Positions 44,071-53,793 of a DNA stretch of 64,000 bases are shown here, piece after piece. Under the pieces are notes generated by a model. It saw nothing but the letters and a program-made list of their open reading frames with translations, searched no databases and was not told the DNA's origin. Positions within the stretch are counted from its first letter, which is position 1. Every line of letters begins with the position of its first letter. The translations under genes and the position numbers were made by a program. Source of the DNA: Octopus vulgaris (taxonomy: Eukaryota); NCBI GenBank assembly GCA_951406725.2, contig OX597836.1, positions 25,296,001 through 25,360,000 of the forward strand. The letters are read 5' to 3'.

Positions 44071-44467
44071 CCTCCTTCTTCCCTTCTTTCCTGAGCGTCC
44101 AATAATACTTTATTTGTTCCACGTCCTTGCGTTGTTGTTTTTTTGTTTTTGTTTTTTTGTTTGGATTGTTTATCTATGTTTGGATATATATATATATATA
44201 TATATATATATATATATATAGTGATGTTTTTGTTGCCAACTGAATGTGGCAATCCCAGTAAAGGGAAGAATGCTACTGCTATTTAGCCCCAGGAAACACC
44301 GTTTCCAGTTCGCTATATGTCCCTTTACTGGGACTGCTACATTAAGTTGGCAACAAACCATCACTTTATCGTGCCGCTACTGTATAAATCTCTGAGTGAT
44401 TTGGAAATGTAATATTTCTAATTATATATATATATACAAGCAATATTAAATCTCTGAGCGAGAAGTA

Positions 44468-44863
44468 TCGTGGCACTCCGTCAGTTACGACGATGAGTGT
44501 TCCAGTTGATCTGATCAATGGAACAGCCTGCTCGTGAAATTAACATGCAAGTGACTGAGCACTCCACAGGCACGTGTACCCTTAACGTAGTTCTCGGGGA
44601 AATTCAGCGTGACACAGAGTGCCACAAGGCTGGCCCCTTTGAAATACAGGTAAAACGGAAGGAAGAAGAAAGAGTGAGTGAAAATTGTGGTGAAAGAGTA
44701 CAGCAGGGTTCGCTACCACCCCCTGCCCGAGACTCGTGGAGCTTTAGGTGTTTTCACTCAATAAATACACTCAATGCCCTGTCTGGGAATCGAAACCGCG
44801 ATCCTACGACCGCGAGCCAGCGGTCGTAGGATCGCGTAGGACCACTGGGCCATTGCACCTCCA
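44468..44863 (-). mobile_element. SINE family A copy, 14-bp TSD, inserted into a (TA)n-associated hairpin element
   Basis: TSD ctgagcgagaagta at 44454-44467 and 44864-44877. Confidence 0.88.
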
Positions 44864-45487
44864 CTGAGCGAGAAGTAAACAGTAGTAGTACAGGGTCGTA
44901 AAATATAATTGCCAACTAAATGTGGCGGTGCCATAGAGGACGTTGCTACTGTTGTTTTAGCCCCAGGAAGACAGCTCCTCTAGCTGGCTAACGACACACT
45001 GTCTGTATTCGATTAGGGACTGCTTCATTTAGTTGGCAATTATATTTTACGATTCCAAATAGAGATATAGGCGTGGGTGTGTGGTAAGAAGGTTGCTTTC
45101 CGACCGCATATTTCCGGGTTCAGGCCCAATATGTCACGTATTTGGCAAGTGTCTTCTACTATAACCTCAGGCAGACTATAGACTTGTGAGTGGATTTGGT
45201 AGAAGGAAACAGAAAGTGGCTCGTCGTGTATATGTGTGAGTATGCGCGTGCGTATATGTGTGTGTGTGTGTTTATGTGTCTATGTGTCTATGTTTGTTCC
45301 TCCACCATCGCTTGACAACTGGTGTTGAGCTGTTTGCATCTCCATAACCTAGCGGTTCGGCAAAGAGACCGATAAAATAAGTACCAGGCTAATAAAGAAT
45401 AAGACCTGGGGTCGAATTGTTCGACAAAAGCACTTCAAGGCTACGCTCCAGCATGGCCACAGTCAAAGTGCTGAAACAATATCACAA

Positions 45488-46495
45488 TCTCCTGCATAGG
45501 ATAACTGCTGTATTTGTTGAGTATTTAAACAGTTTATAAAGTGTTAAACATATTCGGTATGCAAATTAGGGACTCCTGCATAGAATAACTGCTGCATTTG
45601 TTGTGTATTTAAAAAGTTTGAAAGGGTTAAACATTTTCCGTATGCAAATTAGGGACTCCTGCATAGAATAACTGCTGCATTTGTTGTGTATTTAAAACGT
45701 TTGAAAGGGTTAAACCTTTTCGGTATGCAAATTTGGGATTCCAGCATAGAATTAACTTCTGTATTTGTTGAGTATATATAGAGTTTACAGAGCGGTTCAA
45801 CATTTTCGGTATGCAAATTAGGGACTCCTGCATAGAATAACTGCTGCATTTGTTGAGTATATATAGAATTCATAGCTCAGTTCAACATTTTCGGTATGCA
45901 AATTAGGGACTCCTGCATAGAATAACTGCTGAATTTGTTGAGTATATATAGAATTCATAGAGCAGTTCAACATTTTCGGTATGCAAATTAGGGACTCCTG
46001 CATAGAATAACTGCTGAATTTGTTGAGTATATATAGAATTCATAGAGCAGTTCAACATTTTCGGTATGCAAATTAGGGACTCCTGCATAGAATAACTGCT
46101 GAATTTGTTGAGTATATATAGAATTCATAGAGCAGTTCAACATTTTCGGTATGCAAATTAGGGACTCCTGCATAGAATAACTGCTGCATTTGTTGAGTAT
46201 ATATAGAGTTTATAAAGCGGCTCAATATTTTCGGTATGCGAATTAGGGACTCCTGCATAGAATAACTGCTGCATTTGTTGAGTATTTAACCAGTTTATAA
46301 AGTATTAAATATTTTTTGGTATGCAAGCTAGGGACTCCTGCATAGAATAACTGCTGTATTTTTTGCGTATTTAAACAGTTTATAAAATGTTAAACATTTT
46401 TGGTATGCAACTTTGGGACCGCTTCATAGAATAACTGCTGTATTTGTTGAGTATTTAAACAATTTATACAGTGTTAAACATTTTCGATATGCAGT
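45488..46495. repeat. 85-bp tandem satellite, about 12 units
   Basis: gggactcctgcatagaataactgctg at 85-bp spacing (45821, 45906, 45991, 46076, 46161, 46246, 46331). The central units are identical and the edges are diverged. Confidence 0.95.
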
Positions 46496-47421
46496 GGATT
46501 GCGATATTTAATAAGCTTTGAGAATCTATCACGACGAAGCGTCTAAACGGATCTGTAAATAACCCAGATTCACTACAACAATGCGAAGCTGTGCGCATCT
46601 TCGCCAACAAATCACGTAATCGGGAAATTTGGCTGGTCAACAATTTAGCGTTTGTTGTAGAGTCCGGGTCTTCACATTCTCTTCCATCTGCTTGGTCCAA
46701 TAGAGGACAGGTCTTCGGGAATAAAGAACTTCATGACACAGACGAAGTGAAAGGGACTGTGAAGATTTGAGGACAACAACACACTTTTGAATTTTTTTCC
46801 AAAGAAGACTCGTGAGTTGTGTACAACGATGGTGCCAATACATCGTTTTGGGATAAAGGCTATTTTGTGTAGCACCATTGTAGAGAGGAAGAGTTGCTCC
46901 GTACATATGGTGTGTATGATGACCAACTCATGCCGTCTGTTGATATAAAAGTTATATCATTCTTTGTATTATTTTCGTTAGAATCCCCGCGTCTGAGCAC
47001 GCATGCGTTTCTCTATACGTGCTTAGGGCAAAGAACCCCTTCGGTCATGAAGGAGCATGGGCTGCACCTAGAAAGTTCCCCTCCAAGGCAATGCCCAGGC
47101 AAGGTTGTTTATGGAAGACCAGCAGTCGCCTATGCATACCAGCCTCCCCGCTCCTCACCACCGATGTTATCCAAGGGACAAACAAAGAGGCAGAGTGAAA
47201 TGGAGCAACATGAAATAAAGTGTCTTGCTCAAGAACACACACAGCCCTGTCCAGGAATTGAACTCACTACCTCATGATTGTGAGCCCGACGTTCTAACAA
47301 ATTAGCCATCTGCCTTCATGAATGCATACACATATATTCATAAACACACACATACATACATACATACATACATACATACATACATACATACATACATACA
47401 TACATACATACATACATCTCA

Positions 47422-50979: not shown

Positions 50980-51205
50980 GCCACACCATTGGTACTCCAA
51001 AGGGCATTTCGTATTTTTACCGGCTTTCCAGAATATCAGCCCTTCTATACCAATGTGACATACTTTGTGTGGACCCCTTGTTTAACACCAAAAGAAGAGA
51101 AGCATAGATTTTTTTAGAAGACCAGTAATATTTTGTCTCTGCTTAATGACAATATGTCTGCCACGAATGCAGCAGAATGTCCGGGTTGTTTGCGCATTTA
51201 CGTCA
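50980..51205 (-). mobile_element. Chapaev-like (CMC) transposase N-terminal fragment, frameshifted
   Basis: RKCANNPD/FCCIRG..KQRQNIT...PHKVC....W.AGK/MPFGVPMVW. Confidence 0.6.
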
Positions 51206-52999
51206 ATATGTATTCATTCAAAATGGCGTTCATAAGTAAATACCTATTTCTTTACTACCCACAAGGGGCTAAACACAGAGGGGACAAACAAGGGGATTAA
51301 GTCGATTATATCGACCCCAGTGCGTAACTGGTACTTAATTTATCGACCTCGAAAGGATGAAAGGCAAAGTCGACCTCGGAGGAATTTGAATTCAGAACGT
51401 AACGGTAGACGAAATACCTATTTCTTTACTGCCCACAAGGGGCTACACACAGAGGGGACAAACAAGGACAGACAAACGGATTAAGTCGATTACATCGACC
51501 CCAGTGCGTAACTGGTGCTTATTTAATCGACCCCGAAAGGATGAAAGGCAAAGTCGACCTCGGCGGAATTTGAACTCAGAACGTAACGGTAGACGAAATA
51601 CCGCAAAGCATTTCGCCCGGCGTCCTAACGTCTCTGTCAGCTCGCAAATACCACCAAAGACTGACCTCTGAACTACTAATGCAACATTAAAGCATCAGTT
51701 AGCAATTGTGTACACAGATTTGGAAGATTCATGTGGTCTGTAAGAGTTGCCAACAACTGTTTACTAAACTTTACATTGGCAGCTCTTTTACATTTACTAA
51801 TACCAGGTCAGCATTGATTTATAGCAATCTATTTTGTTGAGCAAAATTAATCAGATAATCACTGTCATCTGATTCTCTGGCACTATAATACGGGGAAAAA
51901 ACCAAGGCTTTATTACAGAAAAACAACGCGCAATGGAGGAAAACAAATAACAAATCTGAAATCAGTGTAAAGATTGCTTCCAAAGGTTATGTAGACATTT
52001 AAATGTGAAAAATCATGCAGTCTTGTGCTATTACAGTTATCAAGTACAAATTTCCCAATACATTCACAAAATATAAGAGAATCAATTAGAGGAGAAACAT
52101 GGAAAACTGTTTGTTGACTCAAAAACTAAATCTTAAATATTAAATCACACACACACACACACACACACACATGCACATCCATTATCTTCCATGTTTTCTT
52201 TTATGTCCCTGAATCAAACAAACGCACTGACACACATGTACATACATAAAAACATATATATACACATTTTTCTTTGTTTTTACGAAACGCTTACGCTTAT
52301 GTAATATTTCTCTATGTTTGTGTTTATATATGTATGTGTATAGGTATATAAATTTAAAATTTAATAAGGGTAGAAATTGATATTAATCAATTAAAACCAG
52401 TGGCCCAGCATATAAAAAAATCCGAAGATTAAAATATTTTTACATACAAAAGTCCTGCAAATTGTATTTCTATATGACAGACCATGCTGACGAGATTGGA
52501 GTTTATCCTTGCGGATATTAACAATCGAAACTGATCAGTACATGGGTAATCATTTTTATTTCGTATATTTTCATTTGTCTTGCTTATTTCTAATGCTTTG
52601 GTTTTGTGCTGAGTTTTTATTTGAGAACATATTCTTTGTGGAAAATAGCGATCTGACGTCTATATCTAGCAAGTTGACCGTCCACTTTTAGTGGTCAGTC
52701 CTTTAAATTTTGTATAGGTATATATATATATATGTATGTATGACAAACAATTCGCTCCTTCTGTATGTAGTTGTTTGTGTGCGGGGGTGGGGTACTGAAA
52801 AGCTCCTGGCTTTGGGCAACAAAAATACAAGAGGATCAGTTAATTACAATTTTATGATTTTATTCAGCATATTCCCCTTTCAGATTCACATACTTATTGC
52901 AGGGGTCCTTCAGTTTTTTCTAAGCCCTGTAAAAGAACTCAGAAGGTTGGGCTTTATATACATACCCAAATGCATATATATATATACATATATATATAT

Positions 53000-53343
53000 A
53001 GAGTGGTTGTATACTGTCAACTTAACGAGACAGTCCCGTAAAGGAATTACAACACCGCTGTTTAGCCCTAGGAAGCATCGACGCTTCCTGTCGGCCTTGA
53101 CACATTTTCTGTGTCCTTATATATTTATGAAGAGGAGACAAACACCCCCAACAGCTAGGCCTATACGTGTATCTAGATGCAGGCCTAGCTGTTGGGGGTG
53201 CTTGTCTCCTCTTCATAAATATATAAGGACACAGAAAATGTGTCAAGGCCGACAGGAAGCGTCGATGCTTCCTAGGGCTAAATAGCGGTGGTGTAATTCC
53301 CTTACGGGACTGTCACGTTAAGTTGACAGTATACAACCACTCT
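53000..53343. repeat. Palindrome with arms of about 160 bp in (TA)n
   Basis: agagtggttgtatactgtcaac...cagctaggcct / aggcctagctg...gttgacagtatacaaccactct, with a few mismatches. Confidence 0.93.
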
Positions 53344-53793
53344 ATTGCTCCACTACCGCACATATCTCTATGAGATATTTAGAAATTTAATATTTCTGAT
53401 ATATATATATATTTACACACACACACACACACACACACACACACACACACACACACACACACACACACACATATATATATATATATATATATAACAATGA
53501 TAAATCTCAGAGCGAGTTATAAACAGTAGCGGCAACACATTGTGACGTATATTTGCCATTTGAATATGGCAAACCCCTAAGGGTGGATGCTACTGTAGTT
53601 TGTAGCCCCAGGAAGACACCTCCTCCAGCTGGCTATAGACACACTTTCTGTGCCCTATCAGTATTTGTGAAGGGAAGTCATCCTTCCCGTCTTCAACTCA
53701 TGATACACACGGACTCGAGTGTATTAATAATGATCACACCGGTCTTCCATAGATACAATTAAAAATAAAGAAATTATCAATAGTATTAAGAAC

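Follow-up and report, generated by a model that had tools for sequence, protein, structure and literature searches.

The hairpin motif repeated in the window (the whole 64,000-nt stretch of Octopus vulgaris DNA analysed here) is a conserved base-paired domain of ~130 nt in the 3' half of ~350-bp non-coding, hammerhead-bearing repeats, i.e. non-LTR retrozymes with insertion scars of Penelope type, and we consider it probable (roughly 60%) that a Penelope-like reverse transcriptase (RT), borrowed in trans, docks on this domain and is directed by it to start copying internally. About half of the copies end at one spot inside the fold, and the fold therefore likely sets the copy start for such an enzyme. 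The motif had been called unidentified in an earlier, sequence-only reading of this DNA, but its carriers belong to an already known class, the hammerhead retrozymes, with the hammerhead lying outside the motif and on the other strand. Genome-wide, 14,658 exact matches of the 13-nt core were counted, compared with 24 for the control.

Each retrozyme unit carries a type I hammerhead with its core, stems I and II and a palindromic stem III. Family A has head-to-tail monomers of 352 bp (10 intervals), families C and D have monomers of 359 and 350 bp, respectively, the unit of family E is 357 bp when taken from the spacing of matches, and family B shows partial tandems only. A coding frame is absent, the monomers joining end to start. 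The seven families (A to G) are homologous, 54–79% identical, and hammerhead core variants occur among them, CCGAUGA in family A and U3-A8 in family E and part of family G. The latter core is common to variant Penelope-like hammerheads described earlier, which concern the upstream ribozyme and not the present domain (PMC4209133). As far as the published text available to us goes, metazoan non-LTR retrozymes are alike in their ~350-bp non-coding tandem monomers (350–390 bp in mussel), in one type I hammerhead per unit with palindromic helix III and in the proposed Penelope-like mobilisation (PMC7229834; bioRxiv 10.64898/2026.07.22.740005). The text available gives only minimum-free-energy pictures of whole circles and holds no family-wide covarying domain or mapped copy start, and in the text of the preprint "secondary structure", "tail" and "recogni-" do not occur; a prior description of the fold was not found in the literature searched.

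When analysing the insertions, a Penelope-like signature appeared, consisting of partial tandems with an adjoining inverted 5'-truncated copy and a tail extension on one end alone, with two end classes in all families. The targets are typically (TA)n for families A to E and plain AT-rich sites for family F. The pLTRs of endonuclease-positive Penelope-like elements (PMC11167929, PMC8557442) share the partial tandems, the inverted 5'-truncated partner, the one-end tail, the AT/TA-rich targets and a hammerhead upstream of two starts, the AC-rich first site being found in several octopus families. The octopus repeats differ in having no ORF, a tail of ~45–60 nt against the published 30–40 bp, and a first site that lies ~180 nt from the hammerhead, against ~90 nt at Penelope-like ends. 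A subterminal repeat of a DNA transposon or MITE was rejected since the arms vary in length, the ends are asymmetric and the inversion points random.

In the window the core TAGCCC(C/T)AGGAA is located at 44284, 44958, 53063 and 53603 on the plus strand and at 53280 on the minus strand, and in most copies the hammerhead has been cut off. The copies and their parts are as follows.

53494..53719, minus strand: family A copy with tail, 5'-truncated inside the hammerhead, keeping the palindromic stem III, the cleavage triplet and the 3' strand of stem I (53708–53719)
53524..53655, minus strand: conserved domain of this family A copy
53638–53654, minus strand: family A hairpin Pb
53603–53635, minus strand: family A Pc, comprising the previously noted hairpin 3, a lower stem and a 4x3 internal loop
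53588–53595 paired with 53524–53531, minus strand: family A closing helix Pd
53573–53584, minus strand: family A H2
53554–53571, minus strand: family A H1
53541..53543, minus strand: end position of family A tail-less copies, 12–13 nt 3' of H1, mapped on other genomic copies; putative internal start of reverse transcription
53172..53399, plus strand: family B copy with tail, earlier described as a mirror; domain at 53227–53358
52998..53162, minus strand: family B inverted tail-less copy ending in (TA)n, matching the tailed arm in 160 of 165 bases
44438..45010, minus strand: family C copy with tail, decayed; domain at 44880–45010
45016..45052, plus strand: family C inverted tail-less piece, H2 to H1 only
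44220..44335, minus strand: family D tail-less copy ending in (TA)n, previously noted from 44231
44319..44423, plus strand: family D partner in inverted orientation, tailed and 5'-truncated to H2
42850..43051, plus strand: family E copy with tail, of the most diverged family; domain at 42878–43010
4256..4300, minus strand: family B tail-less fragment (H2 to H1)
4329..4372, plus strand: inverted twin of the former fragment, likewise tail-less

The family C copy is interrupted by a SINE at 44468–44863, flanked by a 14-bp target duplication. The sequence-only reading had treated its copies as one shared motif, of which the common fold holds while the copies themselves fall into four different families; the fifth, at 42850–43051, had escaped it. 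The truncated piece that it had placed near 4267–4298 is real, though longer, and has the inverted twin listed above.

The functional RNA strand, earlier left undecided, is assignable from the type I hammerhead that lies ~105 nt upstream of the motif on the strand opposite to the one on which the motif was first described. The most common distance between hammerhead core and motif core is 105 nt in families A and D, 107 nt in B and 108 nt in C, and with overlapping loci counted twice the hammerhead was found for 43/67 core instances in family A, 25/45 in B, 13/42 in C and 12/40 in D, the others being 5'-truncated. Reading of the sequences revealed the upstream hammerhead in families E, F and G as well. 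The three hairpins are present as first described, except that hairpin 3, reported as weaker in two copies because the wrong strand was used, is perfect on the hammerhead strand through G-U pairs. The earlier list of helices lacked the closing helix, which encloses hairpins 1 and 2 and creates a multi-way junction, an upstream hairpin and an internal-loop stem below hairpin 3; the 4x3 internal loop and the 8-nt H1 loop are conserved. Independent folding of the majority sequences of families A to F gave the same topology, with the hammerhead strand more stable in five of six cases, and both strands fold better than shuffles. When the RNA strand of the window copies was folded, three of four gave z-scores of -3.4 to -4.6, and the decayed copy at 44909 (z = -0.9) did not adopt the model fold. 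Pseudoknots were judged by eye.

The reported covariation of the stems could be extended to seven families, where 202 of 203 pair cells are paired on the hammerhead strand and 13 of 29 pairs, spanning five helices, are compensatory (one pair only in H1 and zero in Pb), the helices having been anchored by hand on family majorities. Among the 20 changed pair types 13 are double-paired, six wobble and one broken, and none of 20,000 shuffles reached the observed covariation. The 29 pairs are an earlier set of 34 minus five terminal pairs, which hold both A-C cells of the earlier count; the 34-pair alignment had one noisy family B column, for which the present version uses a cleaner majority. Controls slid out of register were 33–46% paired compared with 92% in the true register of a model-fitted alignment. 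A covariance model built from the 53553- and 44909-type families alone scored the other copies at 40–67 bits, the best unrelated score in the window being 16 bits; the copies first reported are real and not due to chance. Within families the stems decay as fast as the loops, and selection is thus seen only between families.

That the pairing would act in single-stranded DNA, as a terminal structure of a DNA transposon or rolling-circle element or in cDNA, is hardly credible. Long inverted arms and TA targets do recall foldback elements, and the folding of both strands is in line with such a role, but the arm lengths differ between copies, one arm is tail-less and 352-bp head-to-tail monomers exist with a hammerhead in each. 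The 203 pair cells moreover include eight G-U and no A-C on the hammerhead strand, and these wobble pairs, which fit that strand, would be A-C mismatches on first-strand cDNA.

The Rfam 15 models gave no match on the domain at gathering score in the window, and when six loci were searched down to E<=10 it was matched by neither a ribozyme nor an snRNA family, the only matches being miRNA-like ones on microsatellites and inverted arms; the sensitivity of this search is limited, as the upstream hammerhead was likewise missed. The three findings that had been said to speak against the motif were all sought, with covariation present, no Rfam match and no DNA-transposon subterminal repeat as the outcome. 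A pattern scan of metagenomes gave one match of 6 bits, attributed to chance. The multi-way junction, with a single strand and then a hairpin behind it, has an snRNA-like outline, and the fold might descend from a small cellular RNA gene or help to transcribe the repeat, or to process its 3' end, in the manner of snRNAs. This is improbable given the Rfam result, and a conserved Sm-like site was not evident by eye in the family majorities.

Mapping of the 3' ends revealed two classes, one 10–20 nt past H1 (mode 12–13) inside the junction and the other ~45–60 nt further on. In an unbiased sample, the first 100 core matches of one contig, 41 copies are tailed, 52 tail-less and seven other, and 42 of the 52 tail-less copies end 10–20 nt after H1, inside the junction. 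Across six families 87 of 89 tail-less copies diverge 9–18 nt after H1, the lower bound of 9 nt being set by the method and 10 further copies being unclassified. Covariation, Penelope-type scars and tail-less ends inside the fold together bear out the suggestion of a structured retroelement RNA and candidate RT-recognition element. As the families are homologous, the distance from H1 to the end could also be merely inherited.

A comparable pattern is known from the RT of an anole Penelope-like element (Poseidon), which has two internal starts in an AC-rich stem-loop downstream of a hammerhead; the sequence separating the two start sites forms the tail, and a protein-binding motif was hypothesised there (PMC11167929). 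This internal initiation in vitro yields the same two-end pattern with no RNA cleavage, which speaks against the suggestion of a new ribozyme, namely a second self-cleaving one cutting in the junction and making the tail-less template end. The compactness of the fold, with its several helices and its conserved unpaired bases, the missing Rfam match and the location of one end class within the domain would suit such a ribozyme. A single scissile bond should, however, give sharper ends than those observed inside the fold, which spread across some 10 nt and form two peaks in family F, although microhomology blurs this; a hammerhead is already present in the elements, and cleavage in the junction would take the closing helix apart. 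We regard it as very unlikely.

In the docking and internal-start reading, the retrozyme would be transcribed, cleaved by its hammerhead and circularised by analogy with published retrozymes, a GIY-YIG nuclease would nick TA- or AT-rich DNA, and the Penelope-like RT, supplied in trans, may bind the transcript through the domain. Priming at two sites could then produce the tailed arm and the inverted tail-less arm, the internal start being presumably fixed by the fold, in which the internal loop and the 8-nt loop of H1 are conserved. Structured cis elements for RT docking or for the start or stop of copying occur in the R2 3' UTR, in the 3' stem-loops of LINEs and SINEs and in the template-boundary helix of telomerase RNA. 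The octopus domain has no sequence or Rfam likeness to these, and its start is internal and doubled.

A recognition signal is usually common to a non-autonomous element and its partner, and it counts against docking that no autonomous partner among the sampled families carries the fold. At the ends that belong to the elements themselves it was absent from 50 Hydra-type loci, 70 partly overlapping Neptune-type loci, 30 Poseidon-pattern loci, 39 loci of a young 1312-aa family and, by model search, five loci of Naiad remnants, and no ORF with RT and GIY-YIG joined to a retrozyme end was found in the Penelope-like families sampled. Of 265 motif loci, 10 have Penelope-like protein matches; in the two that were fully read these are not contiguous with the motif, and the others were judged by coordinates. 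Pfam gave no name for the Penelope-like proteins tried.

Several candidate carriers were rejected. Stray model matches near Penelope-like loci turned out to be separate insertions, and a family E copy beside a 1312-aa element is not a template-switch chimera since 38 bp of older flank, common to a duplicate, lie between them. Another motif copy is preceded by a 1312-aa-like remnant, which terminates in a hammerhead and TA tract of its own. Two 10-nt core matches in published Naiad consensus starts are about chance level for 584 kb, and two features judged by eye are not significant, namely a faint resemblance between tail hairpins and the tails of Hydra-type elements and, in the 1312-aa family, a similar tail length.

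The fold may instead have been selected for other RNA steps (control of whether the hammerhead is free or blocked, circularisation, circle stability, host-protein binding), with the start set by something nearby. Consistent with this are its absence from sampled autonomous elements, tails present with the fold absent at other hammerhead-bearing ends of the same genome, and the highly self-paired, abundant circles described in the published retrozyme text available (PMC7229834). General stability, however, requires neither a shared topology, 4x3 internal loop and 8-nt loop across seven families nor a constant end position within the junction, and we find this explanation doubtful while still a serious one. 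It is conceivable, though less likely than not, that octopus retrozymes evolved an RT-hijacking domain of their own, which the autonomous Penelope-like elements exploited by them lack and whose covarying multi-way junction offers a telomerase-related RT both a docking place and the internal start; this would be the first structurally defined template signal of the enzyme class. In the cited work on Penelope-like pLTRs the binding motif was only hypothesised, with no covariation-backed structure.

Penelope-like RTs are the closest relatives of telomerase RT. For their choice of RNA and internal start, one in vitro study has located the starts with an only hypothesised binding motif, and the enzyme moving animal retrozymes has so far been inferred. 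The seven diverged families provide a structure model in which compensatory pairs occur naturally and the start site is mapped, and two intact young Penelope-like ORFs, one of 781 aa and Neptune-type, the other of the 1312-aa family, are present in the same genome. Should the fold serve RNA stability only, what is left would be an annotated structure for repeats whose class is known.

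The core TAGCCC(C/T)AGGAA, noticed in a sequence-only reading as part of a multi-hairpin motif in (TA)n elements, is present in the window at 44284, 44958, 53063 and 53603 on the forward strand and at 53280 on the reverse strand; the hairpins are as that reading gave them and the fragment near 4267 is genuine, with an inverted twin. The covariance model proposed there was built (R1; 132 positions, 34 pairs, trained on 11 copies from two families only), and both R1 and a profile recover all window copies together with one at 42878-43010 that had been overlooked. With R1, no unrelated stretch of the window exceeds 16 bits. 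The copies belong to five families, A to E. The genome, 2.8 Gb with the window on contig C23, is judged to be that of an octopus from the top protein match of a neighbouring retroelement and from resemblance to published octopus Naiad sequences.

Copies in the window, each representing a high-copy family of its own
53494-53719, family A
52998-53399 and the pair 4256-4372, family B
44438-45052, family C
44220-44423, family D
42850-43051, family E

Both arms of the inverted pair at 4256-4372 are tail-less with (TA)n between them, the usual pair being tailed/tail-less, and the copy of family C has its tail interrupted by a SINE (44454-44877) with a 14-bp target duplication.

Genome searches with families A-E gave 1,348-3,892 first-look candidates each, 40 of them being scored per search, and two further families, F and G, were found outside the window via other genomic loci. 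Exact genome matches to the 13-nt core number 14,658 (a count leaving out family E and diverged copies); its reversed control yields 24. Of the first 100 matches, 99 represent such elements, 78 by BLAST and 21 of the 22 others by eye. The copies are arranged as head-to-tail partial tandems (period 352 bp in family A) adjoined by an inverted 5'-truncated copy, mostly in a (TA)n setting, and thereby resemble endonuclease-positive Penelope-like elements, for which the same layout, including the tail at one end, is described (PMC8557442). Non-LTR retrozymes are non-coding monomers of such size with one hammerhead each (PMC7229834; bioRxiv 10.64898/2026.07.22.740005), and since the carriers are non-coding monomers of ~350 bp, likewise with one hammerhead each, they belong to this class, already known from the literature. 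The sequence of family E is also found in contigs of two further organisms. Many family F copies (loci L346-L374) are ~420-bp hairpins, nearly perfect and with the fold at the hammerhead, a form favoured by the query, and their insertion sites are plain AT-rich rather than (TA)n.

The hammerhead, of type I, lies on the strand opposite to the one first read and consists of stem I, core, stem II, GAAA, a palindromic stem III and the cleavage triplet. It is located upstream of the motif core at a fixed distance of ~105-108 nt in families A-D and likewise precedes it in E, F and G; its own core is CUGAUGA in B, C, D and F and CCGAUGA in A, while E and part of G carry the U3-A8 variant already known from Penelope-like elements (PMC4209133). 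It had escaped the first reading because truncation 3' of it has removed it from most copies in the window. Seven more hammerhead-like cores (4618+, 9053-, 9578+, 36738+, 43858+, 48444+ and 52487+) come from other Penelope-type end families, several as inverted pairs within (TA)n, and the motif follows none of these seven.

When folded unconstrained on the hammerhead strand, the majority sequences of families A-F and one copy of family G all adopt one common arrangement: hairpin Pb, then Pc (a lower stem, a 4x3 internal loop and the third of the hairpins first noticed), then the closing helix Pd of 7-8 bp, which encloses H2, H1 and a ~22-nt linker; in some families this linker forms a further small hairpin. 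The final hairpin is located in the tail. The hammerhead strand is the more stable in five of six family majorities and level in B. The anticipated covariation is present across the seven families, with 202 of 203 cells paired over 29 core pairs and two-sided compensatory change in 13 of the 29 (Pd 6/7, H2 3/4, Pc 3/9, H1 1/4, Pb 0/5); non-canonical cells on this strand are 8 G-U and 0 A-C. A structure acting at the DNA level is very improbable. The pairing level was attained by none of 20,000 shuffles, in a test where helices are hand-anchored and the relatedness of the families (54-79% identical) is not taken into account. With the five terminal pairs included, five families gave 164/170 cells paired, 14/34 pairs compensatory, 8 G-U and 2 A-C, and across 52 matches aligned by fit to the model, pairing holds in 92% of cells versus 33-46% in slid controls. 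Inside any one family, decay is equally fast in stems and loops, which is what dead genomic copies should show, and the window's own family C copy has lost the model fold. The structured RNA proposed for these retroelements is genuine and covaries strongly, and its carriers form a known element class.

The domain has no match in Rfam 15, and a single metagenome match was rejected as chance. A second ribozyme and a snRNA-like remnant are both very improbable readings of it. No published description was found in the literature searched (subscription journals and Repbase excluded); an octopus repeat annotation of 2026 includes Penelope-like families with recent activity and, in the part of its main text consulted, makes no mention of hammerheads or retrozymes (PMC13282606). 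This analysis contributes a structure model spanning seven families, assigns the strand, places the short end within the junction and adds the negative carrier search.

Carrier copies end at two positions. In a set of loci selected for similarity, tail-less copies from six families numbered 89, and 87 of them depart from the majority sequence 9-18 nt past H1; in this mapping values below 9 are unreportable, ten copies are unclassified, and the count includes a few diverged copies that do have tails. The end of tailed copies lies ~57-73 nt after H1. An unselected sample (the first 100 core matches on one contig, C1) held 41 tailed and 52 tail-less copies and 7 broken earlier, and 42 of the 52 end 10-20 nt after H1. 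Their distribution peaks at 12-13 and 16-17, and microhomology with TA accounts for part of the second peak. The short end thus falls within the junction, some 10 nt upstream of the 3' strand of Pd. [quoted passage not shown]

As to function, we infer that the domain is most likely (probability about 0.6) bound by a Penelope-like RT-endonuclease. The repeat would be transcribed and its hammerheads would excise monomers, which, judging by the element class, may circularise; the enzyme would bind the Pc/junction domain, nick AT-rich DNA and prime from one of two places, the end of the tail or the junction linker; joining of the two products would give the observed layout, in which one arm has the tail and the inverted one lacks it. 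A fold serving RNA processing or stability instead is possible but doubtful.

In search of an autonomous element sharing this end, R1 was run on the own ends of Penelope-like groups and gave no match in Hydra-type (50 loci; clade called by the RWK, DK(S/T) and CxCX5C motifs of PMC8557442), Neptune-type (70 partly overlapping loci, including an intact 781-aa family), a very young 1312-aa Penelope-like family (39 loci), a Poseidon-type family in decay (30 loci) or remnants of Naiad (5 loci, most of them so truncated that their own end does not show). The Penelope-like groups whose end was read have their own hammerhead or own end, without the domain fold. Five Penelope-like proteins matched at 10 of 265 motif loci; the two best-placed cases of an ORF joined to the motif were rejected as separate insertions. 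The absence of the fold from the autonomous groups sampled tells against the explanation in its simple form, a "shared 3' end".

The very young family (L305-L314, e.g. G000:C17:6329800-6339700) has intact 1310-1312-aa frames and at least 150 matches at 96-100% identity; its ORF begins within the pLTR and contains an N/S-rich low-complexity insert, and it has its own hammerhead. In the 781-aa Neptune-type family (L231, L251-L262) the 3' UTR carries CCAAT boxes and TGACGTC boxes, both repeated, as well as a TATA-like element ahead of a U3-A8-type hammerhead near the end. A broken Hydra-type ORF remnant in inverted arrangement lies at 49000-49600 in the window, with thousands of related candidates in the genome. 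Elsewhere in the window are remnants that resemble a LINE RT C-terminus (23790-24506, reverse strand) and a mariner-type transposase (55727-56349), and at 45489-46493 an 85-bp minisatellite of ~12 copies, each with the octamer-like ATGCAAAT.
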